Origin: an uncultured bacterium
Lineage (GTDB): Bacteria; Muiribacteriota; Ozemobacteria; Ozemobacterales; Ozemobacteraceae
DNA: 64,000 bases
Direction: 5' to 3'
NCBI GenBank assembly: GCA_937949615.1
Contig: CALEDQ010000008.1
Coordinates: 243,586 to 307,585, forward strand
Both the position numbers and the translations under genes were made by a program. Positions 8,410 through 32,220 of this stretch are shown here, piece by piece; position 1 is the stretch's first letter; each line of letters opens with the position of its first letter. The notes beneath the pieces were generated by a model. The model was given only the letters and a program-made list of their open reading frames with translations. It was not told the origin of the DNA and did no database searches.

Positions 8410-8478
8410 TAACGCCCATTTTAAAACAGAACCCCGGCAGACTCCAGCGTTTTTCTGCCCGGCAACAAATAGCTGCAG

Positions 8479-12067: not shown

Positions 12068-12071
12068 CGGA

Positions 12072-13205
12072 TCACCTACTGAAGCGACTGCAGAGCATGC
12101 CTTTGATGCCAAGCTGCCGCTCGATTATCAATGCTTCGAAATCGAAACCGTAACAGCTTTTGCCGTGCCGGCTGCACTGGTCACAGTTCTTGAAATGACT
12201 GACAACCGTTTTGCGAAAATCATCGAGAACCTGGCTTCTGCTCCAGATATCGACGATATCATCCTCGGGCAGTCGCCCCAGGCAGAGTTCTGGGTTCAGA
12301 TAGCTCGCATAATGATGTGGCCAGACCCGCCCGTCGGCTGTGAGACAAAGGGCAGTAAACCCCGCCGGTACCGGAATTTCGACCGGCGCCGGCCGCCTCT
12401 GGCTGCCGATCGCAGAGCAGGCCACCGGGTATGCCGGGTATTGCCGCTGCAGTGCTTTAACCCTGACAGCAAGTTCTTCAAGGGCATTTTCGTCGAGCAG
12501 CAGATGCTGCATGTTTCTCGCCCTGCCGATCAGGCGAATGTGAAAGATATTCATACCGGCGCTGCAGGTGGTTGCCCAGGCGAAAATCTCTTCGAGGCGG
12601 GCAAGATTCTGGCGGTGCGCCAGCAGATTGATACGCACCGGCACCCGGTTGGCGGCGAAAAGCTGCAGAGAGCGATGCACCGAGGCGAAAGCACCCGCCC
12701 CACGCAGGGCATCATGAACATCGGGCGGGCCGTCGACGCTCACGGTCACCTGATCGCAGGCAAGCGCGGCAAGCTTCGCGACAAAAACGTCGGGGTCGTC
12801 ATATACCCCGTTGGTCTGCAGCGAGACCACAAGACCGAGCCCGCGGGCATATTCGAGGATCTGAAGCAGGTCTGAACGAAGCGAAGGTTCGCCACCGGTG
12901 AATCTGACGTTGATAACGCCTGCAGCGGCCAGCTGGCGCAATACCGCAAAAACGGTTTCTGACGGCAGCTCTGAGGGATCAGCAGTTCGACAGCTGGCAA
13001 AACACTGCTGGCAATGAAGATTGCATCGCCTTGTCAGCTCGTAATAAACAGCTACCGGCGACGATATTATATCTCTACGCCCGTTTATAACAGCAGAAAC
13101 TGGTTTTGCCCCAGATGGACAGGCGGCGGTTTCAGAAAAAACCGTAGAAAAATTCTGTGAATCAAATATGGCGCTGCCAAAAAATTCCGGTCTGAAAAAC
13201 TTCAT
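12072..13205 (-). CDS. Radical SAM protein with C-terminal SPASM/twitch auxiliary Fe-S domain
   Basis: Radical SAM triad 'CNLHCQQC'. C-terminal cysteine cluster 'CLGRLPED...CDQCSRHGKSCYG'. ATG at 13203-13205 lies 2 nt after the stop of the upstream B12-binding radical SAM gene. Confidence 0.85.
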   Translation of the reverse strand: MKFFRPEFFGSAIFDSQNFSTVFSETAACPSGAKPVSAVINGRRDIISSPVAVYYELTRRCNLHCQQCFASCRTADPSELPSETVFAVLRQLAAAGVINVRFTGGEPSLRSDLLQILEYARGLGLVVSLQTNGVYDDPDVFVAKLAALACDQVTVSVDGPPDVHDALRGAGAFASVHRSLQLFAANRVPVRINLLAHRQNLARLEEIFAWATTCSAGMNIFHIRLIGRARNMQHLLLDENALEELAVRVKALQRQYPAYPVACSAIGSQRRPAPVEIPVPAGFTALCLTADGRVWPHHYASYLNPELCLGRLPEDDIVDIWSRSQVLDDFRKTVVSHFKNCDQCSRHGKSCYGFDFEALIIERQLGIKGMLCSRFSR

Positions 13206-13207
13206 GT

Positions 13208-14566
13208 TCAGTTTTCTCCGGCAGCAGCGGTTTTCAAGGCCTCCGCACTGGTTTCACTCATATTTTCTACTGCCGAATAGGCCGCTCTGACGATTTTCAC
13301 CATCTGATCATGCTTGAAAAAGACATTCACATCAGATGCTGGCACACTCGAATACCGTGCCAGCTTTGCATCGGCAAGGCGTTCTTCTGACGGAACACTG
13401 ATCGCCTGATGAATCTGCGACTGCCACAGATCGGCGCCGAACTGCTGTGAAAGCTGGGTTCCGGCATAGAGAACCACCGGAAAAAAAGTGCAGTCGCTCA
13501 TGCCAAGGCGCTTCAGTTCGATGGCAAAATTAACGGTCGCTGCCATTTCTTCAGGGGTTTCATCAGGAAACCCGAGCATGAAGAAACCGCGCGAGTAAAT
13601 GTGGCGTTGCCCGAGAAAGCCCACAGTGCTGCGCACCCGGTCAAGGTCGAGAAACTTTTGCAGCGCCTTCTGGCGCTCGCGGCTTGCAGTTTCAACGCCC
13701 ATCGAAACGAAATTACAGCCGGTTCTGGCCAGGTCATCGGCAATTTCAGCGGTAATGTGATCGGCACGCCCGATGCAGCTGTAAGTTACATCGAGCTTTG
13801 CAATACCGGCGAAAAAATCGGCAAGCCAGCGGCGGTCACTGAAGAACGAATCATCGAGAAAACCGATATTGATGCGGCCATAGCGCCCGGCATGAAACGC
13901 AACTTCGCGCAGCACGCGATCGACCGAATAGCGCCTGACTTTGCCCGGCCAGAGTTTTGGCGAGGCACAGTAGGTGCAGCGGCAGGCGCAGCCACGCGAA
14001 GTCGTCATAAATACCGAGCGCGGCACTTTGAGCTGATCCTGCAGAGCAAAGTAATCTGGCATCGAAACGAGCTGATAATCAAGAAATGGCAGAATATCGA
14101 GATTGGCAATTTCATTGCCGTTAATTGTCACTGTTGCTTCTTCGGCCGGGCGATCTGATCTGATCAGGTCTTCAAGTGCCGTTTCGCCTTCGCCGACAAT
14201 CGCAAAATCAACAAGATGCGCATCGATTATCCGGCCCGGCATTGCCGTCAGCAGGGGACCGCCGCCAATTGTTCGAATTTCGGGCACTTCAACCTTGAGA
14301 GCCCGGCACAACTTTGCTGCGGTAGCCTCGGTGCCCTGATAGAAGGGAATCCCAACCCATTTCGGGGCGACAGCCCTTATTTCTGCAAGCGTTTGTGGCA
14401 GGTCGAGCTGCTGCTGTGAGGCGTCGAGAATTCTGGTGCCGATTCCCTTAGAGTTCAGCCATGAAGCAAGATAAATCAGGTTGACCGGTGGCTTCAGATC
14501 GACCATTGCGCGCGTATCCCAGCTCAGGGGGAACGAAACGAGTATGACTTCACTCTGACTGTTCAT
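13208..14566 (-). CDS. Cobalamin (B12)-binding radical SAM protein (class B)
   Basis: B12-binding-like N-terminus ('VILVSFPLSWDT...LIYLASWLNSKG'). Radical SAM triad 'CACRCTYC'. The track start at 14584 is TTG. An ATG ('MNSQSE') at about 14566 sits 6 nt after 'GAAAGG' and is the more likely start. Confidence 0.85.
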   Translation of the reverse strand: MNSQSEVILVSFPLSWDTRAMVDLKPPVNLIYLASWLNSKGIGTRILDASQQQLDLPQTLAEIRAVAPKWVGIPFYQGTEATAAKLCRALKVEVPEIRTIGGGPLLTAMPGRIIDAHLVDFAIVGEGETALEDLIRSDRPAEEATVTINGNEIANLDILPFLDYQLVSMPDYFALQDQLKVPRSVFMTTSRGCACRCTYCASPKLWPGKVRRYSVDRVLREVAFHAGRYGRINIGFLDDSFFSDRRWLADFFAGIAKLDVTYSCIGRADHITAEIADDLARTGCNFVSMGVETASRERQKALQKFLDLDRVRSTVGFLGQRHIYSRGFFMLGFPDETPEEMAATVNFAIELKRLGMSDCTFFPVVLYAGTQLSQQFGADLWQSQIHQAISVPSEERLADAKLARYSSVPASDVNVFFKHDQMVKIVRAAYSAVENMSETSAEALKTAAAGEN

Positions 14567-15581
14567 CAAAAACCTTTCTGACAAAAGACTCAGGCGAAAT
14601 TTCGCGGGCGGTGACCGCCAGCAGGCTGCCGGAACCCTCGATATGCCTCAGACCGGCGACCATGTCGGCACAGCTTAAGCCAATCTGTTCAAGTCCGGCA
14701 AGATTTACCGGAAGTCCAAGACGCACACACATGGCACGAAACTTTTTCAACAGGTCGTATGAGCCGGTTTGCCCGGCAAATGCCCAGACATTCATCAGTG
14801 ACCCGGCGGCAACCAGTTCGCCATGAAATGGCTTTAATGCGTCATTGTAGAGATGGCTTTCCATTATCGCATAATAGAGTTTGTGCTCGCCGCCGGCGCT
14901 CAGCTCGGTATTGCCGCGCTTGATCACCATCAGCGAGCTGGCATGCGAGTAGCGGGCAAGACGGCGCATGGCCATGCGGTTGAAGCCATTAAAGCGGTTC
15001 AATACCCAGTCGATGGCATTGAAATAGAAAGCGGCGAGTTCTTCAATTTCAGAGCGACTGAAACTGCCGCTTTGAAAGCTGTAATCGATGGCAGCACTGA
15101 TGCCGGCAAAAAAGTCACCGAAACCGGCGCGTGCCGCCCGCAGAACCGTAGGGTTAACTGCGGTTTCAAGAAATTCATCGAGAATAAAAACCGTTTCAGG
15201 GGCCCGGGTTTTGCTGGCTCTGAATTTTCCCTCGTATTTGAGCACGCTGCGGTCAACACTGATGCATGAAGTCGACAGAAATGTCGGAATCAGCAAAAGC
15301 GGCCGGTCGGCAACATGAGCGCAGGCCCTTGCCACATCGAGAGCGGCACAGCCCCCCACCCCGACGTATCTGACGGCCTTGCCGCTTACGGCAATTATGG
15401 CCTCGATGTTGCGGGCGCAGTTCGAGTCGATGACACGCAGCAGCGGCAGCTTCTGCAGTCTTTCCTGCTGTGAATCATCGGTGATGAAAAATGTCTGACC
15501 GTCGTCGAGTGCCGCAGTGAGTTCGAGCAGCGACGACGCCGTAAAAACCAGCTCAGGCCTTTTCCATAGCGAATTCTGCAT
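14550..15581 (-). CDS. DHQS/Fe-ADH-superfamily enzyme: sugar-phosphate cyclase, glycerol-1-phosphate-dehydrogenase-like or iron-containing alcohol dehydrogenase
   Basis: Nucleotide-binding motif 'YVGVGGCAALDVARACAH' followed by 'LLLIPTFLSTSCISVDRSV'. Compare the dehydroquinate synthase pattern 'GGGvvgD...vPTTLLSQVDSSVGGK'. I take the ATG at 15581 ('MQNSLWKRPELVFTAS') as the start. The 42-codon track extension to 15707 is Cys/Trp-rich and unconvincing. Confidence 0.65.
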   Translation of the reverse strand: MQNSLWKRPELVFTASSLLELTAALDDGQTFFITDDSQQERLQKLPLLRVIDSNCARNIEAIIAVSGKAVRYVGVGGCAALDVARACAHVADRPLLLIPTFLSTSCISVDRSVLKYEGKFRASKTRAPETVFILDEFLETAVNPTVLRAARAGFGDFFAGISAAIDYSFQSGSFSRSEIEELAAFYFNAIDWVLNRFNGFNRMAMRRLARYSHASSLMVIKRGNTELSAGGEHKLYYAIMESHLYNDALKPFHGELVAAGSLMNVWAFAGQTGSYDLLKKFRAMCVRLGLPVNLAGLEQIGLSCADMVAGLRHIEGSGSLLAVTAREISPESFVRKVFDEQSE

Positions 15582-15733
15582 TGAAAATCCCGACAACCGA
15601 ACTTGATGAGCCGCCACAATTATACCTGTACAACCGCAAAAACCTAAGCCCCATCTGCAGATTTTCAATGGCAATCTTTGCAACAGTTTCTCGAAATTAT
15701 CGAACAACCTGCTTATGCCATAAAAACTCAGTT

Positions 15734-16608: not shown

Positions 16609-17178
16609 ATGACGACCATGAAAAAAATACCCGTGCCGGTTCTTCTGATTGCCCTGCTGCCGGTGATCACCGCCCTCTGGCTCAGATACAGCGGCAGAAA
16701 CTGGCTTGCCCCTGATGGCAGTCTGCGTCTCTGGTATGGGCTGGCAAACGGCTCCGGCACCTCACAGCACCTTCTCGACCCATACAGTTTCACGCATTTT
16801 CTGCACGGGTTTATTTTCTGCTGGCTGATAATGCTGGTCGGAAAAAGCCTGCCGTATCTCTGGCAGCTGACCCTGACTATCGCTGCCGAATCTGCCTGGG
16901 AAATAACCGAAAACTCAGAAACAATAATCAACCGTTACCGCGAAGCCACCGTCGCACTCGGCTATTTCGGCGACAGTATCATCAACTCGATGTCAGATAT
17001 TCTCTTCTGTGCACTCGGCTTTGTTGTCGCCGCCAGGCTCGGTTTTAAAAAAAGCCTGGCGGTCTTCGTCATCATCGAACTGCTGCTTCTGCTCTGGATC
17101 AGAGACAATCTGACGCTGAACATCATAATGCTCTTAAGACCGGTCGAAGCCATCAAAGCCTGGCAGGGCGCCATCTGA
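16609..17178 (+). CDS. Small integral membrane protein of unknown function (about 4 helices)
   Basis: 'MKKIPVPVLLIALLPVITALWL' plus three further hydrophobic segments. Divergent from the radical SAM operon. Confidence 0.55.
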   Translation: MTTMKKIPVPVLLIALLPVITALWLRYSGRNWLAPDGSLRLWYGLANGSGTSQHLLDPYSFTHFLHGFIFCWLIMLVGKSLPYLWQLTLTIAAESAWEITENSETIINRYREATVALGYFGDSIINSMSDILFCALGFVVAARLGFKKSLAVFVIIELLLLLWIRDNLTLNIIMLLRPVEAIKAWQGAI

Positions 17179-17242
17179 AACAGAGCCCCTGCAGAAAGCC
17201 GATCGCGCAGGCCCGGCAGGGGCGCTTCCGTTAACGCCGCGA

Positions 17243-18418
17243 TTGCTGTATATTTGTTGTGAAAAACCACTCAGGAGATTTCATATCAACAGCTCAATCA
17301 AAACCGGTCTGCTGCTTTTTTCGTTTGTTGCCTCAACCCTGCTGACCCCGGCAGTCTGCACCGCTCAGCGCGCCAGCAATCCAGACTTTCCGCAATATGA
17401 AAGTTCTGGTTATTCAGATTATCCTGAAATGACCGAGCCTGAACCGGGCGCCGATGAATCGACCAGCGTCTACGAATACCTCGATCGTGAAGGCGAATCT
17501 GGCAGTGAAGACTCAGAAAATTATTATGACGAGCCCAATTATGAATCTGCCGGCACCGGCGAATACGACGAAACCACAGATGTCAGCGAAGCTGCTGAGT
17601 CCGCTCCGCCACCGGCACGCCAGCTGCTCAAGCCCGGCGCCCCGATCGATATCGCCGAAAAAACCATTCGCGTCGGGCGTATCCCCTACCTCAGCGTTAA
17701 ACAGCTGATGGCCCAGGCGGTACCGCTGCTGCGCAATCTGCAGAAACGCACCGGCGCCAAAGAAGTCAGGCTGGTTTCGAGCGGCTCATATTCAGATATC
17801 ATCAGCGCCCTGGCCCGCGGAAAAATCGATTTCGCCTGGGTGGGCCCGACCGCCTATCTCAAACACCGCGACAAAGAGAACCTGATGGCGGTTGCCAAAG
17901 CAAAATTCGGCGACGAAACCGCCTACCGCGGCGTCTTTATCGCGCCGGCCAAAGGCAAAGTGCAGGGCCTCGAAGATCTCAGCGGAAACATCGTCGGCTT
18001 CGTCGACCCCGAATCGGCAAGCGGCTACATCTACCCCAACTACCTTCTGAAAACTCTGAAAATCAGACTGAACAAAAAGACCCGCGTCGCCTTTCTCAAA
18101 AACCACGACAATGTTCTGCTGGCGGTTTTAAAAGGCAAAATCGACGCCGGGGCCTGTCTCGAAAAGACCATTACCGCCTCGAAAATCAAAGATCTCGATA
18201 AAAGAATCATCGTTCTCGCAAAGACCGAAGAAATACCCTCTGACGTCATCGTCTGCCGTCAGGACTGCGCAGCGAATCTGCGCGAAAAATTTCAGGAAGC
18301 CCTCACCAGCATCAAACCAGGCGAACTGCCCGGCAGTCCGCTGACCTTTCTTGCCGCCAGCGACGATGAATTTGCACCTGTCGAAGCGGTGATGCGCTAT
18401 CTCAAGCTGCTACCCTGA
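17243..18418 (+). CDS. Phosphonate/phosphite-type ABC transporter substrate-binding protein (PhnD-like) with an acidic Tyr/Glu/Asp-rich N-terminal extension; no cognate ATPase or permease adjacent
   Basis: Signal-like segment 'LLLFSFVASTLLTPAVCTA'. Acidic tract 'YESSGYSDYPEMTEPEPGADESTSVYEYLDREGESGSEDSENYYDEPNYESAGTGEYDETTD'. PhnD-like core 'GRIPYLSVKQLM...DFAWVGPTAYLKH...YRGVFIA...GNIVGFVDPESASGYIYP'. The track start is TTG. Confidence 0.7.
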   Translation: MLYICCEKPLRRFHINSSIKTGLLLFSFVASTLLTPAVCTAQRASNPDFPQYESSGYSDYPEMTEPEPGADESTSVYEYLDREGESGSEDSENYYDEPNYESAGTGEYDETTDVSEAAESAPPPARQLLKPGAPIDIAEKTIRVGRIPYLSVKQLMAQAVPLLRNLQKRTGAKEVRLVSSGSYSDIISALARGKIDFAWVGPTAYLKHRDKENLMAVAKAKFGDETAYRGVFIAPAKGKVQGLEDLSGNIVGFVDPESASGYIYPNYLLKTLKIRLNKKTRVAFLKNHDNVLLAVLKGKIDAGACLEKTITASKIKDLDKRIIVLAKTEEIPSDVIVCRQDCAANLREKFQEALTSIKPGELPGSPLTFLAASDDEFAPVEAVMRYLKLLP

Positions 18419-18447
18419 ACAGAGGCGGCAACAGCTGGATTTTCTGC

Positions 18448-18486
18448 AAACAGCCCTGACAGTTCAGGGCTGTTTTGCTTTTTCGG
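18448..18486. terminator. Bidirectional rho-independent terminator between convergent genes
   Basis: Stem 'aaacagccctga' / 'tcagggctgttt' with loop 'cagt', then 'tgttttgcttttt'. The stop codon of the 18464..19444 gene lies in the right arm. Confidence 0.6.
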
Positions 18487-19444
18487 CCTGCAATAGCAGC
18501 AACCAGAAGGCAAAAAGCCCGATAAGGCCAGTAAAAATGTTGCTGAAAAGTATCCCCGGCATGGTGGCAAAAACCATGGCCACCACCGGCCCGACCGGCC
18601 GCTGATACTTGCGGAATTTAAAAACCATGACAATAAAAAAGATGAACAGGACAAAGCATAAAAGCTCCTGTATGGCAAAAATTCCCCGGAACATACTGTG
18701 ACTCATCATAGCCTGAACACCCATGCTGAGTGTCACGGCCAGATAAATTGTCTGCAGACCGGTCCACAGAGCTGCTCCAGCTGTCACACCGGCCCAGAAA
18801 TTCGTCTGCCAGTTACCGCTGCGCTTCAGAAACAGCACGGCGCCAGCCATCGCAATCAACATTTGCATCACTAAAACCGGCATCTGCCCATATGCGATGG
18901 TGAAGCGTCCCAGTGCCCGCAAAGCCGGGTTCATTCTGTCGAGGCTATAGGGATCGGGGTTGAAACCATCGATGGTTTTCTGCCAGAGTTTCTCATCGAT
19001 GCCGGACTTCTGGCACTTATCAATAAAATAAGCCCGCACCGATTCAGCTGTTACTTTGTCCTCATCGTCTTCAATAAAACCATGCTTCACACAATAGATG
19101 TCATATTTATGACTATCCTGGTGCGCAGCGCCAGCTAAAGCCCACGGCACGACAGCATACCTGCACCCGGGCAAAAGAAGCTTATGAGATTCAATGTCCT
19201 TGATCAGTGCCTGCTCAATCAGTGCCTCGAGCGGAATCTCGCCAGTCGACGGGTCAGCGCGCAGCTCTGGCGGGGGAAAACCGCTACCGCCACTTTTAAG
19301 AGCGTCCGTATATTTGGTCAATTCCTCTAGAATTTCCTGACAGCGCCGATATTCGGTCTTTGCACGCCTGGAAGCTTCTGCTGTCAGAGGAAGAAGAATC
19401 ACAATAAAACACAATAAAACCGTAAAAAGCTTTGACCTGTTCAT
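18464..19444 (-). CDS. Hypothetical membrane protein with N-terminal signal peptide and C-terminal transmembrane helices
   Basis: 'MNRSKLFTVLLCFIVILLPLTAEA'. C-terminal hydrophobic helices. Last gene of the GGDEF-TAXI-ankyrin operon. Confidence 0.55.
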   Translation of the reverse strand: MNRSKLFTVLLCFIVILLPLTAEASRRAKTEYRRCQEILEELTKYTDALKSGGSGFPPPELRADPSTGEIPLEALIEQALIKDIESHKLLLPGCRYAVVPWALAGAAHQDSHKYDIYCVKHGFIEDDEDKVTAESVRAYFIDKCQKSGIDEKLWQKTIDGFNPDPYSLDRMNPALRALGRFTIAYGQMPVLVMQMLIAMAGAVLFLKRSGNWQTNFWAGVTAGAALWTGLQTIYLAVTLSMGVQAMMSHSMFRGIFAIQELLCFVLFIFFIVMVFKFRKYQRPVGPVVAMVFATMPGILFSNIFTGLIGLFAFWLLLLQAEKAKQP

Positions 19445-19453
19445 TTTATCAAC

Positions 19454-20872
19454 TCATCTCTCTGTTTTTTCAGCAACAGAATTTTCGATTATCTTCAAAA
19501 GACGCAGGTAACGCATCTTTTCAGCAAAACTGCGCGGTGAATCGCCGGTTTTGTCTTTTATATCAGGATCGGCATGCCATTTCATAAGAGTTTCAACCAG
19601 CTCTGGCTCATTGAGTTCGACTGCGTAACGCAGAGGTGTCTTCCCATCGTTGTCTGGCTGATTGATTACCAGGGGAATAAATTCGGCATAATTATAATAA
19701 CGCGCCGAACTTTCGCTGACAAAACTACCCAGCATCAGATGAAGAAAGCTTTTGCCATTTTTATCAACAGCCGTGCATTCAATGCCGTTGGACTGCAGAA
19801 TTTTAAACACAGCCGGATCACGGGTAAACAAAGACAGATAAAACAGGTTTTCACCATTGTTTACAGGGACTCTGGCGCCAAGTTTGATTAGTTCCTGTAT
19901 CAGTTCGGAGACCGGCTCGAATCTGCTGCTCAATGCCGCGGCAATCAAAGATGTTCCATCTGCCTTGACCGGCTGGTTGAGATCGGCGCCGTAACTTGCC
20001 AGCATGTGCACATAAGGAAGTGATTTTTTGCCGTTACTGTGCAACCCGACAGCCAGGCCAAGCGCTGTTTGATCAGGGGTCTCAGACAGCCAGAGATTCG
20101 GGTCGGCCCCGGCTTTAAGAAGCATTTCGGTGATCTGCGGGCTGCCATAGCCTCGAATTGCCCACCACAGGGGGCGATAGCGGTAATTTCCTGCAGGTTT
20201 GTTCAGATCTGGCTTCTGCGTCAACAGCCATTCTACCAGAGCGTCCTGATGCTCATCGACGGCCCGGCACAGGGCAGTTTCGAGCGGATTTTCAGTAATT
20301 TCTCCTCTTATACCTTCAAGCAGAGGTGCAAAGCGGTCGGTTCTGCCATTTTTTGCAGCCCTGATAAGCGCATCCATGTAACTTCCGGCAATGAACGGCA
20401 ACGAGGCGGTCAATAATATGCCGACAAAAATTGTCAAAAATGCGGTTCGACCGGGGCTTAACTCCGTACCCTCTGCAGAAGAGGGTTTTGCCACAATTCT
20501 GTTGGCCCAGTATAAGAACCAGAGCCCGAACAGCAGCCAGTATGGCCCAAGAAAAGGCAGGTTTCCGACATAATCTCTTATCAATCCCGGGGTAATTCTG
20601 AGGACCAAAAGTGAGAGAACCATAACGAAAACCCAGAGAACATAAGCAGCCGGCAACCATTCTGCCTGTTGCTGTTTTGCCTTTTCAAGATTGAGAACGG
20701 CAACCGGAAGCCAGAACAATGCCAGCAGCACCCCGGTCAGGCGAACCCAGAAAAAAGAGATCTGGGCAAATTCGAGACAGGCAAACAGCGCGATTATTAT
20801 ACCGACGACCCGGGCCTGAAAAGGGAATCGCCAGCTTATTACCGGCACAGTTTCATCTGCATGATCATTCAT
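19454..20872 (-). CDS. Membrane-anchored ankyrin-repeat protein
   Basis: N-terminal hydrophobic helices (about 170 aa), then repeated ankyrin-like units: 'TALCRAVDEHQDALVEWLL', 'LWWAIRGYGSPQITEMLLKAGADPN', 'TALGLAVGL...', 'TPLRYAVELNEPELVETLMKWHADPD'. Its start overlaps the TAXI gene stop by 8 nt. Confidence 0.8.
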   Translation of the reverse strand: MNDHADETVPVISWRFPFQARVVGIIIALFACLEFAQISFFWVRLTGVLLALFWLPVAVLNLEKAKQQQAEWLPAAYVLWVFVMVLSLLVLRITPGLIRDYVGNLPFLGPYWLLFGLWFLYWANRIVAKPSSAEGTELSPGRTAFLTIFVGILLTASLPFIAGSYMDALIRAAKNGRTDRFAPLLEGIRGEITENPLETALCRAVDEHQDALVEWLLTQKPDLNKPAGNYRYRPLWWAIRGYGSPQITEMLLKAGADPNLWLSETPDQTALGLAVGLHSNGKKSLPYVHMLASYGADLNQPVKADGTSLIAAALSSRFEPVSELIQELIKLGARVPVNNGENLFYLSLFTRDPAVFKILQSNGIECTAVDKNGKSFLHLMLGSFVSESSARYYNYAEFIPLVINQPDNDGKTPLRYAVELNEPELVETLMKWHADPDIKDKTGDSPRSFAEKMRYLRLLKIIENSVAEKTER

Positions 20873-21866
20873 CTGTCTTTTTACCTGCCTTCAATCCTGA
20901 TTCTCTTATGAAACGGGCAGTGCCGGCATGTAGAAAACCTTCCGGAATGCCATTCAACATCGTTTCAGGTTTGATATCATGCGCCCGCTCGTGTATGGTC
21001 TTCAAATAGTCGAGCTCTGCGAACAACGTGCCGACGAGACGGTTGCCAAGCTCCTCTGAAAGCCTGGTAGTGGTAACGAGCATCGCCATCAACGCTGGAA
21101 CTTTGACTTCCTCGTTGACACCACCATAAGTCAGCGCCGGAATCTTAACACCGGAAAGATACGGCAGAGTTTCCGAAATGCTTGCCAGATCAGCATCTGA
21201 AAAATTCATGATGCGCACCGGCATGCGTCTGGCCAGCTCGTCAACCATCTTTGTCGGAATACCCGCAATGATGATCGCGGCATCACATTCGCCGCGTTCC
21301 ATGGCCTGTATCGATTCGTCGTAACCCAGATAAAGCGGTTGGTAATGCCCCTCTCTGACCCCAAGTGCTGACAACAGTTCGACCGAAGTCATCGCATTAC
21401 CGCTGCCACGGGCCCCGACCACAATACGTCTGCCACGCAACTGGCTGACGCTGGTAATCGTGGCCGAAGCCGGGGTCAGCACCTGCACGACTTCAGGGTA
21501 GAGAGCCAGCAGCACCCGTAGTTCGTTTACGGGCGCACCCGTGAACTGTCCGGTGCCGTTGATTGCGGCAAGAACCATATCGCTCTGGGCAATCGCCAGG
21601 TCGAGCTCGAGGTTCTGCAACAGATTGATGTTGTCGAGCGAGCCACGTGTCGAATGTGCCTGCACGCTCAGCTTTTCTGACCGCGTTGTCCAGGCATTCG
21701 CAAAGGCGTTACCAAGCGGAAAATAGGTGCCGGTCATCGAACCGGTGCCAAGAGCGAGAAAGTCGACGAGTCTGCTGACCTGCACCGTGGCATTTTCAGC
21801 GGCGGTGGCGCAGCAGATACTGATCAGAATAAAAAAGACTGCAACGATGATGTTTCTGCTTTTCAT
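20865..21866 (-). CDS. TAXI-family TRAP-type periplasmic solute receptor; no TRAP membrane subunits adjacent
   Basis: Signal peptide 'MKSRNIIVAVFFILISICCATAA'. TAXI-like core 'TGTYFPLGNAFANAW...LSVQAHSTRGSLDNINLL...RRIVVGARGSGN'. Its start overlaps the GGDEF gene stop by 4 nt. Confidence 0.75.
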   Translation of the reverse strand: MKSRNIIVAVFFILISICCATAAENATVQVSRLVDFLALGTGSMTGTYFPLGNAFANAWTTRSEKLSVQAHSTRGSLDNINLLQNLELDLAIAQSDMVLAAINGTGQFTGAPVNELRVLLALYPEVVQVLTPASATITSVSQLRGRRIVVGARGSGNAMTSVELLSALGVREGHYQPLYLGYDESIQAMERGECDAAIIIAGIPTKMVDELARRMPVRIMNFSDADLASISETLPYLSGVKIPALTYGGVNEEVKVPALMAMLVTTTRLSEELGNRLVGTLFAELDYLKTIHERAHDIKPETMLNGIPEGFLHAGTARFIRESGLKAGKKTDE

Positions 21867-24058
21867 TTTTCTGATACCACTCCCATCTGCTCTGAATAAA
21901 TCGATGACTGGTTGCGCCCCTTTTTCTTACATTCATAAAGGGCTGTATCGGCCTTGCGAATCAGCTCGAGCGCTTCGGTCGCGTGCAACGGGTATTCAGC
22001 GAGACCGATACTGATCGTGACCTTCAGCGGGCTGGTATGGCCGGTAAATTCGTGCGACTCGATTGCCTGCCGCAGGCGTTCGGCAACTACCAGACCGCCT
22101 CTGGCATCGGTTTCGGGCAGCAGAGCGATCATTTCTTCGCCGCCATAGCGGGCCGCCATGTCGATATCTTCGCGCAGATTGCCACGAAAGATTGCTGCAA
22201 CCTGTTTGAGCACTTCATCGCCGATCTGGTGCCCATAAGTATCGTTGAATTTTTTGAAATGGTCGATATCGAAGAACAGAATCGAAAATATCTTGCCGTA
22301 ACGGCGGGCACGCTTGATTTCTTCGTTCAGGCGGTTTTTGAAATGCCTTACCAGATTGAGTCCGGTCAATCCATCAGTGATCGCCAGCTTGAAAAGCTTG
22401 GTATTATCGAGCACCAGAGCCGCCTGATTCGCCATTGTCTGCAGCAGGTCGGTATCGGCACGACTGAAGCCCTGCCCATCCTTGCGGTTGACAATGTTGA
22501 TAACGCCAAAGGTCACGTTCTTAACCTTCAGTGGCACACACACAAGCTGATTCACACGGTTTTTCTCATTGGCATACTGCTTAAAATCCTGATGCGAATC
22601 GGGGTCGTTGATGGTCGCCATTTCGCCGCTCTGCAGCACTTTGCCGGCAATCCCTTCACCGACTCTGATATTGATATTGCGGGCAAAATCATGCACCGCA
22701 ACCGTCTGGCCGGCTTCGGCATCCCAGATGCGCACACGCTGCAATTCGAGAACTTCCTGATTTTCATCGATCAGCATCAATGAGCCACGGGTGGCGCAGG
22801 CAGCCTCGATAGCCTTGTCGATAATTACATCGAGCAGCTTTTCGAGATCGAGCCCGACTTCGACCATGGTGCGGCCAATCTTGTAAAGAACCCCGACTTC
22901 GAAAACCTTGCGATCGAGCTCGATATTCTTCTGTTCGATCGTGTCAGAGCGCAGTTTCAGTTCTTCGTAGGCAGCTTTCAGTTCGCGCATCTTATCTGCC
23001 AGGCTGTCGGCCATGAAGTTAAAATTGTTCGCCAGCTGCCCGACCTCATCGGTGTTGTTAACACTGATGCGCACATCATAACGGCCGGCGGCCAGTTCAT
23101 TTGTGCCTCTCGTAACCTGCAGAATCGGCAATGCAATGTTCTGCGAAATCATCAGCGCAATCACTACCGCGACCAGAATCGTGAAAAGAAGAATCCAGTA
23201 AAGATTACGCTGAAAAGCTTCGACCAGGGCATAGACTTCCTGCTGATCCTGCAGCAGTATCACTCGCCAGCCCAGCCCAACCACCGGCAGCATCGAGGCA
23301 AGAACCGGCTTTTTCAGACTTTCTGCAGTGGCAGAAAAAACACCGTTCGAAAAACTTCTGATCTGCTCGCCAAACAGATGCAAATCATTGTCATCAGAAG
23401 CCTCAGGCACCGACATGACCGGAGCACCACCGGCATCGATGAGAAAAGCCCGGGTACTGTTACCCACAAGATTTTCGCTGATGATACTGGTCAGCAGAAA
23501 ACGGTTCAGCTCGATCACCAGCAGGCCATAGGTGTCATTGCTGCGATCACTGAGAGCCATAACAAGCGCTGGACCGCCGCCGATTTTAGAATCGAGCAGA
23601 ACGTATTCACGACTTTTCGTTTCTGCCAGAATTCTCTCTGCATGAGGCAGCTCGCCGGCAATCGAAGCGACGGAACCACACAGCAGCCTGCCTGCAGAAT
23701 CGTAAACCCCGATCCTTTCTATGGCAAAGTAACGCCGGTCGTGCTCCTGCGCCAGTATCGCGAGCTTTGCAAGATCACGGTCAAGTGCCGGCTCACTGTT
23801 AACGAGCAGTTGCGCAATTTCCTGCTGATGGCTGACGAACCGCTTCAGATCGATCGCCGTTTTTCGTGCATGCGCCAGCGAATTGCTGACAATTACATTG
23901 AGAAGGCCATTTGAAGCATTCTGCAGCATCACATAGCTGATATAAATCAACGGCGTCAGTGTGATGATGAGAAAGCTCACGACAAGTTTGGTTTTGATAC
24001 TGTTTAAATAGGCGTGTACCCTGTTTATCAGGTTTTTCTCGCCATTCTGGTCCGGCAT
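21863..24058 (-). CDS. Sensor diguanylate cyclase: transmembrane / periplasmic sensor / HAMP / GAF / GGDEF, with a variant 'GGEEM' active-site motif
   Basis: Transmembrane helix 'LVVSFLIITLTPLIYISYVM'. HAMP 'ALPILQVTRGTNELAAGRYDVRISVNNTDEVGQLANNFNFMADSL'. GAF-like 'GSLMLIDENQEV...GEGIAGKVLQSGE'. GGDEF domain 'DGLTGLNLVRHF...ILFFDIDHFKKFNDTYGHQIGDEVL...ARYGGEEMIALLPETD'. Confidence 0.85.
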   Translation of the reverse strand: MPDQNGEKNLINRVHAYLNSIKTKLVVSFLIITLTPLIYISYVMLQNASNGLLNVIVSNSLAHARKTAIDLKRFVSHQQEIAQLLVNSEPALDRDLAKLAILAQEHDRRYFAIERIGVYDSAGRLLCGSVASIAGELPHAERILAETKSREYVLLDSKIGGGPALVMALSDRSNDTYGLLVIELNRFLLTSIISENLVGNSTRAFLIDAGGAPVMSVPEASDDNDLHLFGEQIRSFSNGVFSATAESLKKPVLASMLPVVGLGWRVILLQDQQEVYALVEAFQRNLYWILLFTILVAVVIALMISQNIALPILQVTRGTNELAAGRYDVRISVNNTDEVGQLANNFNFMADSLADKMRELKAAYEELKLRSDTIEQKNIELDRKVFEVGVLYKIGRTMVEVGLDLEKLLDVIIDKAIEAACATRGSLMLIDENQEVLELQRVRIWDAEAGQTVAVHDFARNINIRVGEGIAGKVLQSGEMATINDPDSHQDFKQYANEKNRVNQLVCVPLKVKNVTFGVINIVNRKDGQGFSRADTDLLQTMANQAALVLDNTKLFKLAITDGLTGLNLVRHFKNRLNEEIKRARRYGKIFSILFFDIDHFKKFNDTYGHQIGDEVLKQVAAIFRGNLREDIDMAARYGGEEMIALLPETDARGGLVVAERLRQAIESHEFTGHTSPLKVTISIGLAEYPLHATEALELIRKADTALYECKKKGRNQSSIYSEQMGVVSEK

Positions 24059-24183
24059 ATGGTTTTGTTCCTGACTTGCGACTTTGCAAAAATTTTTATC
24101 TGATTCAGGCAGTCTACATCAAGCCCTGAAACCATGCAACGCACAATCAGGGGAGCCGACGATAAAATGCACTCAGAGCGTCA

Positions 24184-24609
24184 TCAAACCATAGATTCAC
24201 GCAGCAGACGGATACCGATTTCGGTAAGCTCAACCATCTTCAGATCAGGAAGTGGCTCAAGTCGATGCCAGTCACAGCGATCAGTCGAGCCAGAAAGTTC
24301 GTGCCGCAGCTCTCCACCTATTATGTCGGCATGATAAATAATTCTGATCCCCTGAAAGTCTTCGTAGTCACGTTTAACCACAATCGAATCTATACCGGCA
24401 ACATTTTTCACCTTGATTTTCAAGCCCGTCTCTTCTTCGACCTCTCGAACTACAGCTTCTTCAGGGCTTTCGCCAAATTCAAGCCCGCCACCCGGAAGGG
24501 TCCAGCAGCCTTCCCATTCCGGCAGTTCCTTCGACAAACGGCAGAGCAGAACCCGCCCGTTGTCATGCAAAAGAGCATAAGCAGCGATTCTCAGCCTTTG
24601 CACCTTCAT
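24184..24609 (-). CDS. NUDIX hydrolase
   Basis: Nudix box 'GGGLEFGESPEEAVVREVEEETGL'. 141 aa. Confidence 0.85.
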   Translation of the reverse strand: MKVQRLRIAAYALLHDNGRVLLCRLSKELPEWEGCWTLPGGGLEFGESPEEAVVREVEEETGLKIKVKNVAGIDSIVVKRDYEDFQGIRIIYHADIIGGELRHELSGSTDRCDWHRLEPLPDLKMVELTEIGIRLLRESMV

Positions 24610-24763
24610 CCGGCCCTCCCTCTTTCTGTAACCCTGACAGTGTGTAGAGAAATATCACAGCGCAATTCAGAGCATATTGTCAGCATGATAACAGCCTGCA
24701 GCCATTGTAACAACAACGACTGAAAAAAACCTCACCGATTCATCAGCGGTTGCCACAGCAGAT

Positions 24764-25075
24764 ATGACTGCGACTATCCACCCTGCCGGCCTGCTGATGC
24801 CGGTTCTTGCCGGTGCAGTCACCCTGTTTTTCTGGCGCCTTATCGCAATCTTTCTAAGGCGCCGGTCTGCCATAAAATCAAGACGAACCGAATACCTGCA
24901 GCAACACCCGGAACCCCTTAAGGAAATACGCGACTGCATCATGCAGGGAAAATATGATGCGCGGATGGCTCCGGCAGAGCTCGAGCTGGTGGCGGGCATG
25001 AACATATTTTCAGATATAAAAAATCGAACCCTGATCTTCTTCATCGGCGATCTTCGTCGACAGCAGAAAAAATAA
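24764..25075 (+). CDS. Possible small membrane protein (hypothetical)
   Basis: One hydrophobic helix 'LLMPVLAGAVTLFFWRLIAIFL' then a basic segment. No homology-level evidence. A competing antisense ORF (24667..25086) is Cys/Arg-rich and looks spurious. Confidence 0.3.
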   Translation: MTATIHPAGLLMPVLAGAVTLFFWRLIAIFLRRRSAIKSRRTEYLQQHPEPLKEIRDCIMQGKYDARMAPAELELVAGMNIFSDIKNRTLIFFIGDLRRQQKK

Positions 25076-25187
25076 AACTTTCCCAACCAAGAAGAATTGC
25101 ACGACAGATTTTGATTGAACGGTTGGACAGGTCCTGCTAAAATATAAAAAAATAATATTCTGAAAGATCAGCACAGGATCAAGGACG

Positions 25188-27863
25188 ATGCTTTCCCCCG
25201 CTATAATCAGCCATCGGTGCCGACATAAGGCTTTTTGCACCTTCTTTCTTCTGTTGCTTGCCTTTAACTGCCTTATAACCTCAGCAGCTGCAGACTCTTC
25301 CGGGCTGCCGGTCATAAATATGCAGCTGAAATGGAAACATCAATTTCAGTTTGCCGGCTATTACGCAGCGGTCGAGAAGGGTTTTTATCGAGAAGAAGGC
25401 TTCGAAGTCAACCTCATCGAGGCCCCAGAGACAGGCGAACCAGCCATGGAAGTCATCAACGGCCGGGCTGAATTCGGCACAACCGGCCCTGACATACTGT
25501 TGCAGCGAGCCAAGGGGCACCCGGTCGTCGCGCTGGCAGTCTTTTTTCAGCATTCACCGATGGTTCTTCTCGCACGCAAAGAGTCGGGCATCAACAGTAT
25601 TCACGACCTGGCCGGCAAAAAAGTCATGATAGAGCACGCATCGGCTGAACTTGAGGCATATTTTCAGGTTGAACGCCTCACCCCGGATAAATACACACGT
25701 CTCGCCCACACCCACGCTCCCAATGATTTCATATCCGGAAGAGTAGACGCCATCTCGGCATACAGCAGCGACGAACCTTTTCTGATCAGCGAGACCGGCT
25801 GTGAGTATATAACACTGAGCCCAAGATCGGCAGGTATCGACTTTTATGGCGACCTGCTTTTTACAACGCAACAGCAGATAGATAACAATCCTGACCGGGT
25901 AAAGGCCTTTATCAGAGCCTCTAAACGCGGCTGGGAATACGCTCTGCATCACCCCGAAGAGATTATCGATCTGATTCTGGCAAAGTATTCAAAACGCCAC
26001 AGTCGTGAACATCTGCTTTTTGAGGCCCGCGAAACCCAGCGCCTGGTTTTTGCCGAAATCGTCGAAGTCGGCTACATGAATCCCGGTCGCTGGCGCTTTA
26101 TTGCCGATACCTATGCCTCACTCGGCATGATGCCCAAAGACTATTCTCTCAGCGATTTTCTCTACAATCCAGACCCAACCATCGATATGCGGCGAATATA
26201 CAATATCGCCATCACCCTGTTTGTTTTAATGATTCTGGGTTTCAACTTCGCGCTGTCGCACCTGGTCAAAAAACGCACCCAGCAGCTGTCAATCGCCAAG
26301 GAGAACGCCGAAGCCGCCAACCGTGCCAAGTCGCAGTTTCTTGCCAATATGAGCCATGAGCTGCGTACACCACTTAATGGCGTTATTGGCTTCACTGAAC
26401 TACTCGTCAGTTCGCCGCTCGACACCGTGCAGCGGCAATATGCTCAGAACGCCAACATTTCAGCCCACGCTCTGCTTGGTATCATCAACAACATTCTCGA
26501 CTTCTCGAAAATCGAGGCGGGCAGAATCGACCTCGAAACCATCAAAACCGACCTGATAAGGCTGATGGAACAGACAATTTCAATAGTCAGATGTCAAGCC
26601 GAAAAAAAAGGCCTCGAACTCCTGCTCAACATCCCCCCCGAAACACCCAGATTCATTTTTTCTGACCCGGTTCGACTGGGGCAGGTTCTCATCAATCTGC
26701 TGGGCAACGCCGCCAAATTCACCGAAAAAGGCGAAATTGAGCTGCGGGTTGAATTCAAGCCAGAAAACACCACCACCGGCTATTTTAACTTTTTTGTGCG
26801 CGATACCGGCCTCGGCATCGAAAAGCACGACCGCGAAAATATTTTCAAGGAATTTACCCAGGCAGACAGCTCGGCTACCCGCAAGTTCGGCGGCACCGGC
26901 CTTGGTCTGGCGATTTCCCGCACACTCATAGAAAAAATGGGTGGAAAAATCGATTTCATCTCTGAACCCGGTGTCGGAAGCATGTTCTTTTTCTCGCTGA
27001 AATGCCGCTTTGAGAATGGCGAGCCTCTGGCAACAAAAGACATCGAAGGAATCAAAAAAATTCTGCTGGTGGATGACAGCAAAGATAATCTGACAATACT
27101 GCATCGAACCCTGGAGCACTGGCAAATAAATGCTCAAACCTGCACCAGCGGTAAAGAGGCGCTCAATAAGCTTACGAGCGGCGAAACCTTCGATGTAATC
27201 ATCATCGATTACATGATGCCTGAAATGAATGGTATCGAAACCATCAGGCAGATACGGCAGAAATGTGCCAGAACCGGCAGCAGGCAACCATTCATTCTTC
27301 TTTACAGTTCAATCGACAATTCATTTGTTTCAGAAGAATGCAAAAATCTAAATGTCCAGCTTAAGCTGGTCAAGCCGGTCAGAGCCGATGACCTTTTTGC
27401 CTGCCTCTGTCAGATTTCTCAGAAGCCGATTGAGGTATCGCAGGTGGTCACTCGCCCGGAGTCTTTGACGAATGTCAAAAAATCCCCACATGTTCTGGTT
27501 GTTGAAGATGTGGCTATGAACCGCATTCTGGTCTGCGAGCTCGTAAAAAAACTCATCCCCGACTCGGTCGTGATCGAAGCCACAAATGGCCGCGAAGCCA
27601 TAGAGCGCTTTCAGCATGACAAATTCGACCTGATTTTCATGGATATCCAGATGCCGGTTCTCGATGGTTATTCGGCGAGCTGCGAAATCAGAAGAATCGA
27701 AGACACTTCAGCAGCGGCGAGAACTCCGATTGTCGCCCTTACAGCCAGCGCCGTCAAAGGTGAATACGAGAAATGCATTGCCGCCGGCATGGATGAATTT
27801 ATCACCAAACCAGTCGATCCGCATCACTTCACCAGAATTTTCCAGACTTATCTGAAAATGTAA
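25188..27863 (+). CDS. Hybrid sensor histidine kinase with periplasmic NMT1/SsuA-like solute-binding domain, HisKA, HATPase_c and two receiver domains
   Basis: ATG after 'AAGGA'. Signal/transmembrane N-terminus. Periplasmic substrate-binding-like domain ('LKWKHQFQFAGYYAAVEKGFY'). H-box 'MSHELRTPLNGVIGFTELL'. G-box 'GGTGLGLAISRTLIEKMGG'. Receivers 'ILLVDDSKDN...IIIDYMMPEMNG' and 'VLVVEDVAMN...IFMDIQMPVLDGY'. Confidence 0.9.
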   Translation: MLSPAIISHRCRHKAFCTFFLLLLAFNCLITSAAADSSGLPVINMQLKWKHQFQFAGYYAAVEKGFYREEGFEVNLIEAPETGEPAMEVINGRAEFGTTGPDILLQRAKGHPVVALAVFFQHSPMVLLARKESGINSIHDLAGKKVMIEHASAELEAYFQVERLTPDKYTRLAHTHAPNDFISGRVDAISAYSSDEPFLISETGCEYITLSPRSAGIDFYGDLLFTTQQQIDNNPDRVKAFIRASKRGWEYALHHPEEIIDLILAKYSKRHSREHLLFEARETQRLVFAEIVEVGYMNPGRWRFIADTYASLGMMPKDYSLSDFLYNPDPTIDMRRIYNIAITLFVLMILGFNFALSHLVKKRTQQLSIAKENAEAANRAKSQFLANMSHELRTPLNGVIGFTELLVSSPLDTVQRQYAQNANISAHALLGIINNILDFSKIEAGRIDLETIKTDLIRLMEQTISIVRCQAEKKGLELLLNIPPETPRFIFSDPVRLGQVLINLLGNAAKFTEKGEIELRVEFKPENTTTGYFNFFVRDTGLGIEKHDRENIFKEFTQADSSATRKFGGTGLGLAISRTLIEKMGGKIDFISEPGVGSMFFFSLKCRFENGEPLATKDIEGIKKILLVDDSKDNLTILHRTLEHWQINAQTCTSGKEALNKLTSGETFDVIIIDYMMPEMNGIETIRQIRQKCARTGSRQPFILLYSSIDNSFVSEECKNLNVQLKLVKPVRADDLFACLCQISQKPIEVSQVVTRPESLTNVKKSPHVLVVEDVAMNRILVCELVKKLIPDSVVIEATNGREAIERFQHDKFDLIFMDIQMPVLDGYSASCEIRRIEDTSAAARTPIVALTASAVKGEYEKCIAAGMDEFITKPVDPHHFTRIFQTYLKM

Positions 27864-29380: not shown

Positions 29381-29418
29381 AAACAGCCTGGCCGGAAAAC
29401 CGGCCAGGCTTTCTTTTC
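29381..29418. terminator. Rho-independent terminator overlapping the stop of the convergent 4Fe-4S membrane protein gene
   Basis: Stem 'agcctggccgg' / 'ccggccaggct' with loop 'aaaa', then 'ttcttttc'. Confidence 0.65.
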
Positions 29419-31164: not shown

Positions 31165-31205
31165 GCGACTCCTTATTATTTTTTATTTTTTTTTACGATC
31201 CGGTT

Positions 31206-32210: not shown

Positions 32211-32220
32211 GGTTTACCTC

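Follow-up and report, generated by a model that had tools for sequence, protein, structure and literature searches.

What is a TAXI-family solute-binding protein doing directly behind a gene for a GGDEF-domain cyclase? TAXI proteins have so far been known solely as partners of secondary transporters. The locus studied here lies in a 64-kb stretch of a Candidatus Riflebacteria genome (Ozemobacteraceae), hereafter the window, in which four minus-strand genes and their junctions were verified by ORF calling:

21863-24058, minus strand: cyclase gene (ORF, 731 aa)
20865-21866, minus strand: TAXI gene (ORF, 333 aa), for a secreted TAXI-family solute-binding protein (PF16868, 2e-69; TIGR02122, 8e-75)
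19454-20872, minus strand: ankyrin membrane protein gene (Ank; ORF, 472 aa), for a polytopic membrane protein with C-terminal ankyrin repeats (Ank_2, 1.2e-20)
18464-19444, minus strand: fourth gene (G4; ORF, 326 aa), for a signal peptide, a domain of about 160 aa and then about five transmembrane (TM) helices
21863-21866, minus strand: ATGA stop/start overlap of the cyclase and TAXI genes
24059-24183, minus strand: upstream intergenic region (125 nt), presumed promoter and 5' UTR
18448-18475, no strand assigned: hairpin with a 12-bp stem between the convergent G4 and PhnD-like genes, closing the operon

Two separable gene pairs

The first-pass annotation had described overlapping junctions, and both the 4-nt overlap (ATGA) at 21863-21866 and the 8-nt TAXI/Ank overlap at 20865-20872 are present. 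The gap that it placed between Ank and G4 also exists, but it is 9 nt long (19445-19453) and not 10. The hairpin is likely a bidirectional terminator. At the other end, the 125-nt intergenic region sets the operon off from a NUDIX gene; it has no Rfam match, and no consensus sigma-70 site is listed for it.

The TAXI gene directly follows the cyclase gene at 19 of 19 genome loci and at further loci from Logan, ENA and JGI assemblies, and a cyclase orthologue is present at every related locus. Across adjacent loci TAXI identity ranges from 43 to 93% (43-47% in the most distant), and the same four overlapping nucleotides recur in all 32 junctions tested. The flanking genes vary by lineage, so that the pair is the conserved unit, although the conservation partly reflects common ancestry, as the loci all belong to a single phylum-level group and are mostly from metagenome-assembled genomes. 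The coupling of TAXI to cyclase proposed earlier is thus borne out. Of the TAXI, ankyrin and GGDEF neighbourhood whose conservation was to be checked, the TAXI and GGDEF part is conserved and the three-way combination is not.

Ank has about five TM helices within residues 1-165 (hydropathy) and ankyrin repeats at residues 170-470, with Ank_2 (74.3 bits, cutoff 27.3) and Ank (56 bits, cutoff 21.1) both above threshold. G4 has no Pfam, NCBIfam, PADLOC or PDB match, and its AF2 model is unusable (pLDDT 50); its domain of about 160 aa carries four conserved cysteines and the motifs APWA and YCxxHGF. G4 is so rare (13 homologues among 5.8e9 proteins; 12 clusters among 1.84e9 representatives) that it is probably missing from most genomes that have the cyclase-TAXI pair. 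Ank lies directly upstream of G4 in every locus, and these two genes are never split. An FG-GAP-like gene (52% identity) follows TAXI at four loci (L010, L012, L013 and L029) and precedes Ank-G4 at another (L004).

Ank-G4 stands behind cyclase-TAXI only in the close clade of the window. A further eleven loci whose sequence runs on for about 1.5 kb or more past TAXI have different content there and no Ank-G4. Three other lineages (L004, L036/L037 and L038) carry Ank-G4 without cyclase-TAXI; its neighbours there are unrelated, DeaD, serine dehydratase and Tex among them. The operon therefore splits into two separable pairs, cyclase plus TAXI and Ank plus G4, and the ankyrin protein is no obligate member of the cyclase module. 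These distributions weigh against the earlier view that all four genes form one system with Ank and G4 as effector or scaffold of the cyclase, as does the failure of profile searches to detect a c-di-GMP-binding domain in Ank or G4. Such a system would fit the 8-nt TAXI/Ank overlap and the tight Ank/G4 spacing, which are kept across the clade, and the FG-GAP-like gene near either pair suggests an older, larger neighbourhood; overall we consider it unlikely. The FG-GAP-like neighbour and the 8-nt overlap nevertheless hint that the two modules are possibly not functionally independent. We regard Ank-G4 as a probable separate membrane pair that in this clade would now be co-transcribed with cyclase-TAXI, with G4 probably presenting a disulfide-bonded domain on the periplasmic side and the repeats of Ank probably lying in the cytoplasm.

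A TAXI protein without a nearby permease

The TAXI protein scores far above curated cutoffs (TIGR02122, 251.6 bits against 84.35; PF16868, NMT1_3, 234.9 against 27) and matches TAXI structures in the PDB (1US4, 2e-43; 8S4J, 2e-36). It belongs to a subfamily sharply set apart from the remaining TAXIs (E-values of at most 1e-66 within, against at least 1e-45 outside). By eye, a Sec-type signal peptide is present in all 30 members inspected (the window protein and 29 relatives), that of the window protein being hydrophobic, N-terminal and with an AxA-type site. Five pocket residues (Y48, S76, Q94, E125 and G156) show no variation across 30 sequences and are equivalent to Y45, S75, Q93, E125 and G156 of the glutamate-binding TAXI VcGluP (PMC11574862), so the residues that bind an alpha-amino acid are retained.

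As the first-pass annotation had noted, this TAXI has no TRAP permease partner in its neighbourhood. Searches covered 64 kb of the source genome and about 10 kb to either side of the other loci: phmmer queries with two DctQM proteins from genuine TAXI systems found no DctQM in the window or in 31 loci, Pfam scans found none among the large ORFs of the window, the gene calls for four loci (L040-L043) list none, and at the loci inspected no permease was seen within about 10 kb. The next-nearest TAXIs, used as controls (L030 and L031, 31-33% identity), adjoin DctM proteins of 737 and 691 aa.

The TAXI protein could still be an ordinary or dual-use transporter subunit with a DctQM or GltS-type partner elsewhere, its place behind the cyclase then reflecting only shared regulation or, as for MBP with Tar, a side role in signalling. 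HMM annotation labels these proteins 'TAXI family TRAP transporter solute-binding subunit', the pocket is similar to those of transport TAXIs, and orphan TRAP solute-binding proteins are documented (PMC12344293). However, the lack of a permease in the 64 kb and in the other neighbourhoods searched, and the invariant ATGA coupling, count against this. Where a dual-use binding protein also serves a chemoreceptor, its gene usually accompanies that of the transporter and not that of the receptor (PMC8050422). Genes for binding proteins acting on kinases typically sit with signalling genes (PMC8050422). A transport role thus appears quite improbable.

We instead favour, with a probability of about 0.6 and judging from sequence, an operon of two independent two-gene modules in which cyclase and TAXI would form a binding-protein-dependent c-di-GMP sensor and TAXI would not be a transporter subunit. 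Because it always lies directly behind the cyclase gene with overlapping codons, and because no transporter gene occurs within about 10 kb, TAXI is in these Riflebacteria most likely the ligand sensor of the cyclase, as far as sequence and gene context can tell. The exported protein would hold a small ligand, probably an alpha-amino acid, in its Venus-flytrap cleft and dock on the periplasmic domain of the cyclase. The signal would then pass from TM2 through HAMP, a helical linker and GAF to GGDEF and alter c-di-GMP synthesis.

Sensor and output domains of the cyclase

The domain order of the cyclase is TM1, periplasmic double-Cache (dCache), TM2, HAMP, GAF and GGDEF:

23204-23929, minus strand: dCache sensor domain, about residues 44-285 (AF2 and Foldseek)
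22997-23149, minus strand: HAMP domain, residues 304-354 (PF00672, 5.8e-12)
22406-22852, minus strand: GAF domain, residues 403-551 (PF13185, GAF_2, 3.1e-20; PF01590, 2.6e-15)
21908-22384, minus strand: GGDEF domain, residues 559-717 (PF00990, 3.3e-45; TIGR00254, 1e-51)
22130-22144, minus strand: active-site motif GGEEM, residues 639-643, the same in 22 of 22 orthologues

The HAMP-GAF-GGDEF assignment made earlier was right as far as it went, and missed the dCache between the two TM helices. Pfam dCache_1 (PF02743) stays below its gathering score here (19.6 bits, cutoff 45). The AF2 model of the region (mean pLDDT 78) predicts a long stalk helix and two PAS-like modules between the TM helices, as in a dCache fold. 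Foldseek gave 153 PDB matches at E of at most 1e-3; the best lie at 1e-11 to 1e-8 with many dCache ligand-binding domains among them, and those ligand-binding domains that appear in the top list are all of this type (Mlp37, DctB, PctA and rpHK1S-Z16). HAMP is the most conserved part of the cyclase (86% mean pairwise identity), and the membrane-distal dCache module the least (40%, 6 of 90 positions invariant).

The dCache may sense the ligand itself, with TAXI as an accessory that, for example, buffers the ligand or inhibits constitutively. The predicted fold is clear and most characterized dCache domains bind small molecules directly, which counts against TAXI-dependent sensing; in the NspS-MbaA model, moreover, the ligand changes the association of binding protein and receptor and does not simply activate the receptor (PMC8050422). 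Yet the usual pocket lies in the distal module, which is the poorly conserved one and has no RxWY-type amino-acid motif visible by eye, whereas the TAXI pocket is invariant. We give direct sensing little credence. The weakly conserved distal module would make a weakly conserved docking surface too, a point against docking of TAXI on the dCache.

The GGDEF domain scores well above its profile cutoff (PF00990, 154.2 bits, cutoff 23.8; PDB matches down to 1.7e-39). Its motif RYGGEEM (residues 637-643) agrees with GG[D/E]EF at four of five positions, Met replacing Phe, and GGEEM is kept in all 22 orthologues over an identity range of 55-99%. In alignment with 3IGN and WspR, the residues for Mg, guanine and phosphate are retained (DIDHFKKFNDTYGH..GD and KKKGRN), the conserved types being DxD..., N, D, K and R. 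The optional RxxD inhibitory site is absent at the I-site position (EDID in the window, D-x-x-D in distant orthologues), so product feedback there is not expected. Doubt over the activity of a GGEEM site, raised in the first-pass annotation, was reasonable, but the invariant Met and the intact catalytic residues argue against a decayed site. That the protein is instead a dead GGDEF serving as a GTP- or c-di-GMP-binding receptor or scaffold is very unlikely: Phe is to our knowledge near-universal at this position and no paper on GGEEM turned up in the literature searched, but Met is a conservative hydrophobic replacement, and degenerate GGDEF domains usually lack several of the residues that here align with active cyclases. 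The natural variant would offer a handle on the role of the last residue of the motif.

Comparison with known systems

By analogy, the best reading of the pair is a c-di-GMP sensor dependent on a TAXI-family solute-binding protein, comparable to NspS-MbaA, ScrB-ScrC and ArtI-STM1987. In NspS-MbaA of Vibrio cholerae and ScrB-ScrC of V. parahaemolyticus, the gene for a periplasmic binding protein adjoins that of a transmembrane c-di-GMP enzyme with a dCache-like periplasmic domain and lies among signalling and not transport genes (PMC8050422). Here, too, the binding-protein gene adjoins the receptor gene, conserved across species. A term search of that review found no TAXI-family (NMT1) binding protein, the sole match to 'taxi' being 'taxis'. 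The Vibrio proteins belong to SBP_bac_8 and SBP_bac_3 and their receptors are GGDEF-EAL enzymes, whereas ours is a TAXI protein (PF16868) with a HAMP-GAF-GGDEF receptor that has no EAL.

ArtI is an ABC-transporter binding protein encoded with its own transporter, unlike the window TAXI, whose gene partners that of the cyclase and has no transporter gene close by. The likeness lies in its Salmonella partner STM1987, a dCache_1-GGDEF cyclase whose response requires this periplasmic amino-acid-binding protein (PMC8846402). SBP-fold domains also serve periplasmic sensing within c-di-GMP and two-component proteins such as RmcA (PMC8846402); here the binding protein is separate and secreted, and the receptor retains its own dCache. 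The window also encodes hybrid kinases fused to NMT1 and SBP_bac_3 domains.

If our reading is right, TAXI joins the binding-protein families known to feed signalling receptors, and the two genes would suit study of how such a protein drives a dCache-HAMP-GAF-GGDEF relay. The gain is incremental, because binding-protein-dependent c-di-GMP sensing is already established and the organisms are uncultured. The database label 'TRAP transporter solute-binding subunit' would then be a systematic mis-annotation. More speculatively, and with doubt, one TAXI subfamily in Riflebacteria may have been exapted as a dedicated co-receptor of this cyclase, with cyclase-TAXI, the secreted FG-GAP-like protein, Ank and G4 as parts of one lineage-specific, c-di-GMP-controlled envelope system of which genomes keep different pieces adjacent.

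The TAXI-TRAP systems (VcGluP-VcGluQM; TtGluBP, PDB 1US4) share the fold, the family and the glutamate contacts Y45, S75, Q93 and E125 with the window TAXI (PMC11574862), and differ in having a fused DctQM gene alongside. Positions of the side-chain pocket are altered here (Y200 to I/V/L, D157 to N, H123 to Y/F). The TAXI-GltS system of Bordetella pertussis (BP0403) is the precedent for a TAXI protein outside TRAP that is translationally coupled to another membrane partner (PMC12344293). That partner is a secondary transporter and ours a signalling enzyme, which would make this the second case of a TAXI protein working outside TRAP transporters.

Operon layout and the conserved cyclase-TAXI pair

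ORF calling places four minus-strand genes at 18464-24058, exactly where the first-pass annotation had them:

21863-24058, minus strand, protein 1, cyclase, 731 aa
20865-21866, minus strand, protein 2, TAXI solute-binding protein (SBP), 333 aa
19454-20872, minus strand, protein 3, membrane protein with ankyrin repeats (Ank-TM), 472 aa
18464-19444, minus strand, protein 4, G4, 326 aa

The 4-nt (ATGA) and 8-nt overlaps described there also stand, but the last gap measures 9 nt (19445-19453) and not 10. A spacer of 125 nt parts the cyclase gene from an upstream NUDIX gene, which was rejected as a member of the unit because it is kept in the close clade only. A hairpin with a 12-bp stem (18448-18475) lies between G4 and a convergent PhnD-like gene; with this exception, the promoter and terminator scan gave counts close to the shuffle expectation, and it revealed no convincing internal terminator in the operon region. 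An Rfam scan of 17000-25300 matched no RNA families, and thus no riboswitch is recognized in that interval.

The PhnD-like gene (17243-18418, plus strand), which converges on G4 and has the hairpin in common with it, encodes a second orphan SBP (Phosphonate-bd, 1e-48), in which an N-terminal hydrophobic segment is followed by a long acidic region of low complexity. ABC transporter genes are absent nearby, and the gene lies beside the operon in the close clade only.

A TAXI-subfamily alignment scan gave 19 genome loci with TAXI identities of 46-93%. Conservation of the proposed TAXI, ankyrin and GGDEF neighbourhood holds for the first and last of these, since a whole-cyclase orthologue lies immediately 5' of the TAXI gene on the same strand at 19/19 loci, but the Ank-TM and G4 genes are joined to them in the close clade only. 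Further loci from ENA, JGI and Logan have the identical cyclase-TAXI order. Translational coupling of the two genes is invariant, the cyclase stop and TAXI start overlapping as ATGA at 32/32 junctions (some duplicate contigs counted). The flanks vary between lineages (examples are SbcCD/BLUF cyclase, NAPRTase/ABC-F, CheR/DUF1963, SH3/LysM and Na_Ca_ex/NTPase), and therefore the conserved unit is the cyclase-TAXI pair itself.

Related loci are mostly labelled Candidatus Riflebacteria, Ozemobacteraceae or Rifleibacterium, with a few MAGs labelled otherwise. The MAGs of some pair-bearing loci (L019, L021 and L024) bear the label Erysipelotrichia or Candidatus Avigastranaerophilus instead of Riflebacteria, which may reflect mis-binning or horizontal transfer. 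In the 46-47% identity clade (L021-L024, L028, L040 and L041), contigs from independent assemblies all stop ~30-800 bp past the TAXI stop codon, suggesting a repeat or mobile element downstream of TAXI that breaks assemblies.

A predicted SBP-dependent c-di-GMP sensor

The best-supported reading of the pair is an SBP-dependent c-di-GMP sensor. The secreted TAXI protein would bind ligand in its pocket and dock onto the dCache domain of the cyclase, and HAMP and GAF would pass the signal on to GGDEF; the docking, the class of ligand and whether output rises or falls are the parts that we infer.

Protein 2 belongs to the TAXI family of SBPs (TIGR02122, 8e-75), carries a Sec-type signal peptide and clearly matches the solved TAXIs 1US4 (2e-43) and 8S4J (2e-36). 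Databases label the cyclase-linked proteins as 'TAXI family TRAP transporter solute-binding subunit', and a rival explanation is that the TAXI protein has a transporter partner encoded at a distance. TAXI homologues fall into two blocks, one cyclase-linked (E<=1e-66, at least 43% identity) and the rest (E>=1e-45, at most 35%); the two TAXIs looked at from the second block each adjoin a fused DctM-family permease (737 and 691 aa). The absence of a TRAP permease, claimed at the outset, was borne out: phmmer with these two permeases found no homologues in the 64-kb window or 31 loci, Pfam scans found no permease among the large ORFs of the window, and a DctQM permease was not among the called genes of four homologous loci (L040-L043). 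At the loci examined, a permease is absent near the cyclase-linked TAXI.

Ligand contacts of the glutamate-binding TAXI SBP VcGluP (PMC11574862) were carried via a HMMER alignment onto a 30-sequence subfamily alignment. Positions kept in 30/30 are Y48 (VcGluP Y45), S76 (S75), Q94 (Q93), E125, G156, G202 and T47; in VcGluP the contacts kept bind the alpha-amino and alpha-carboxyl groups of the ligand, and Y45 and Q93 are the two key determinants (PMC11574862). The changes are Y200 to I/V/L, D157 to N and H123 to Y/F, at residues that in VcGluP order water around the glutamate side chain (PMC11574862). This pattern points to a pocket kept intact by selection that would accept an alpha-amino-acid-like ligand, with a preferred side chain that may be other than that of glutamate.

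Profile scans of the cyclase (Pfam/NCBIfam) identified GGDEF (3e-45), GAF (3e-20) and HAMP (6e-12) domains and a below-threshold match to dCache_1, and hydropathy places TM helices at ~25-43 and 286-304. The homologue search for the N-terminus yielded only six fragments, which left AF2 with a shallow alignment; its model of residues 1-309 (pLDDT 78) has a long helix and then a pair of PAS-like modules. A Foldseek search of the PDB returned 153 matches at E<=1e-3, and all ligand-binding domains among the top matches listed are dCache (Mlp37, DctB, PctA and others). As modelled, the periplasmic domain has the dCache fold.

A second rival is that this dCache domain senses directly, with the TAXI protein as an accessory. 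The ligand pocket of dCache domains is usually in the membrane-distal PAS-like module. In the cyclase that module is the least conserved region (40%; 6/90 positions invariant), HAMP (86%) and GGDEF (79% mean pairwise identity) being the most conserved. The variable distal module agrees with ligand specificity residing in TAXI, but the evidence is weak, since a surface used for docking ought to be constrained too.

A third rival, a dead cyclase, goes with the doubt first cast on activity by the active-site variant GGEEM (aa 639-643). Met does replace the usual Phe, but the site has no exception across 22 non-identical orthologues (55-99% identity), and the equivalents of the residues that bind Mg, guanine and phosphate align with those of the reference cyclases 3IGN and WspR. 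Judged by alignment the catalytic residues are intact, and GGEEM is probably a functional variant with predicted cyclase activity retained. At the I-site the sequence is EDID or D-x-x-D in place of RxxD. A literature search found no papers mentioning GGEEM.

The Ank-TM and G4 genes and the wider window

An Ank-TM homologue lies directly 5' of G4 at every G4 locus recovered. This pair stands behind cyclase-TAXI in the close clade only (L001-L003, L005-L009, L032-L035 and L039). Three other lineages have it without cyclase-TAXI beside it: behind an FG-GAP-like gene (L004, 40% identity), flanked by DeaD helicase and an AAA_14/DUF4143 gene (L036/L037, 60%), and flanked by serine dehydratase and Tex (L038, 43%). 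It is absent behind TAXI in eleven cyclase-TAXI loci that have at least ~1.5 kb of sequence there. Thus the four-gene operon is two conserved pairs set side by side in one lineage, with a true four-gene system as a fourth rival reading.

A gene for a secreted FG-GAP-like protein (264-289 aa), absent from the window, directly follows TAXI in L010, L012/L029 and L013 (about 11000-11850), and a homologue 52% identical to that of L029 directly precedes Ank-G4 in L004 (4679-5548). The shared gene could be left over from a larger neighbourhood in an ancestor, which softens the separation into two pairs.

Protein 3 has ~five TM helices and then ankyrin repeats, predicted to be on the cytoplasmic side; PADLOC gave no more than generic ankyrin similarity. 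G4 has no family match in Pfam, NCBIfam, PADLOC or the PDB, the best hit of its profile against PDB sequences (E=0.64) being no real match. It is scarce (13 homologues among 5.8 billion proteins; 12 clusters among 1.84 billion representatives), and its AF2 model from a 13-sequence alignment (pLDDT 50.5) is unusable for fold comparison. Conserved cysteines (C35, C94, C118 and C144), APWA and YCxxHGF motifs, and loops that follow the positive-inside rule suggest that G4 combines a disulfide-bonded periplasmic domain with ~five TM helices. A PilZ-like RxxxR in the conserved G4 loop FRKYQRP was dropped, since distant members lack it and it seems to be no more than positive-inside charge.

Two hybrid histidine kinases with an N-terminally fused SBP-fold sensor are encoded at 25188-27863 (plus strand) and 40034-45316 (minus strand). 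One is NMT1-type; the other (1760 aa) has SBP_bac_3, several PAS, GAF, HisKA/HATPase, REC and Hpt. With the TAXI and PhnD-like proteins, this makes four SBP-type sensors in 64 kb. The response regulator encoded at 2300-3418 (minus strand), ~16 kb from the cyclase, carries an HD_5 (HD-GYP-type) domain and is a possible c-di-GMP phosphodiesterase. A conserved cluster at 6157-15707 (minus strand), syntenic in the homologous loci L001 and L005, encodes MMPL, an 842-aa MFS-HEAT fusion, a dCache_1-like protein, three radical-SAM or B12-binding proteins and a Fe-ADH-like protein. Tandem large membrane proteins (936 and 956 aa) with HAMP and SpoIIE (PP2C phosphatase) are encoded at 56444-62114 (plus strand). 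At 29417-34037 (minus strand), an FNT-family channel gene adjoins genes for NIR_SIR/4Fe-4S proteins resembling anaerobic sulfite reductase (asr-like), with a rubrerythrin-domain protein beyond.

Comparison with known SBP-driven systems

Until now TAXI proteins have been linked with TRAP permeases, GltS being a recent addition (PMC12344293). A literature search found no papers with both 'TAXI family' and 'GGDEF', and a term search of an SBP review (PMC8050422) found no TAXI-family (NMT1) SBP. SBP-driven c-di-GMP enzymes are already known, and the cyclase-TAXI pair, a predicted variant of this kind, is well supported by comparative genomics. NspS-MbaA and ScrB-ScrC are such systems with dCache-like receptors (PMC8050422), and the dCache_1 cyclase STM1987 needs ArtI (PMC8846402). 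As is proposed for the cyclase-TAXI pair, all three are SBP-driven, but their SBP is not a TAXI protein.
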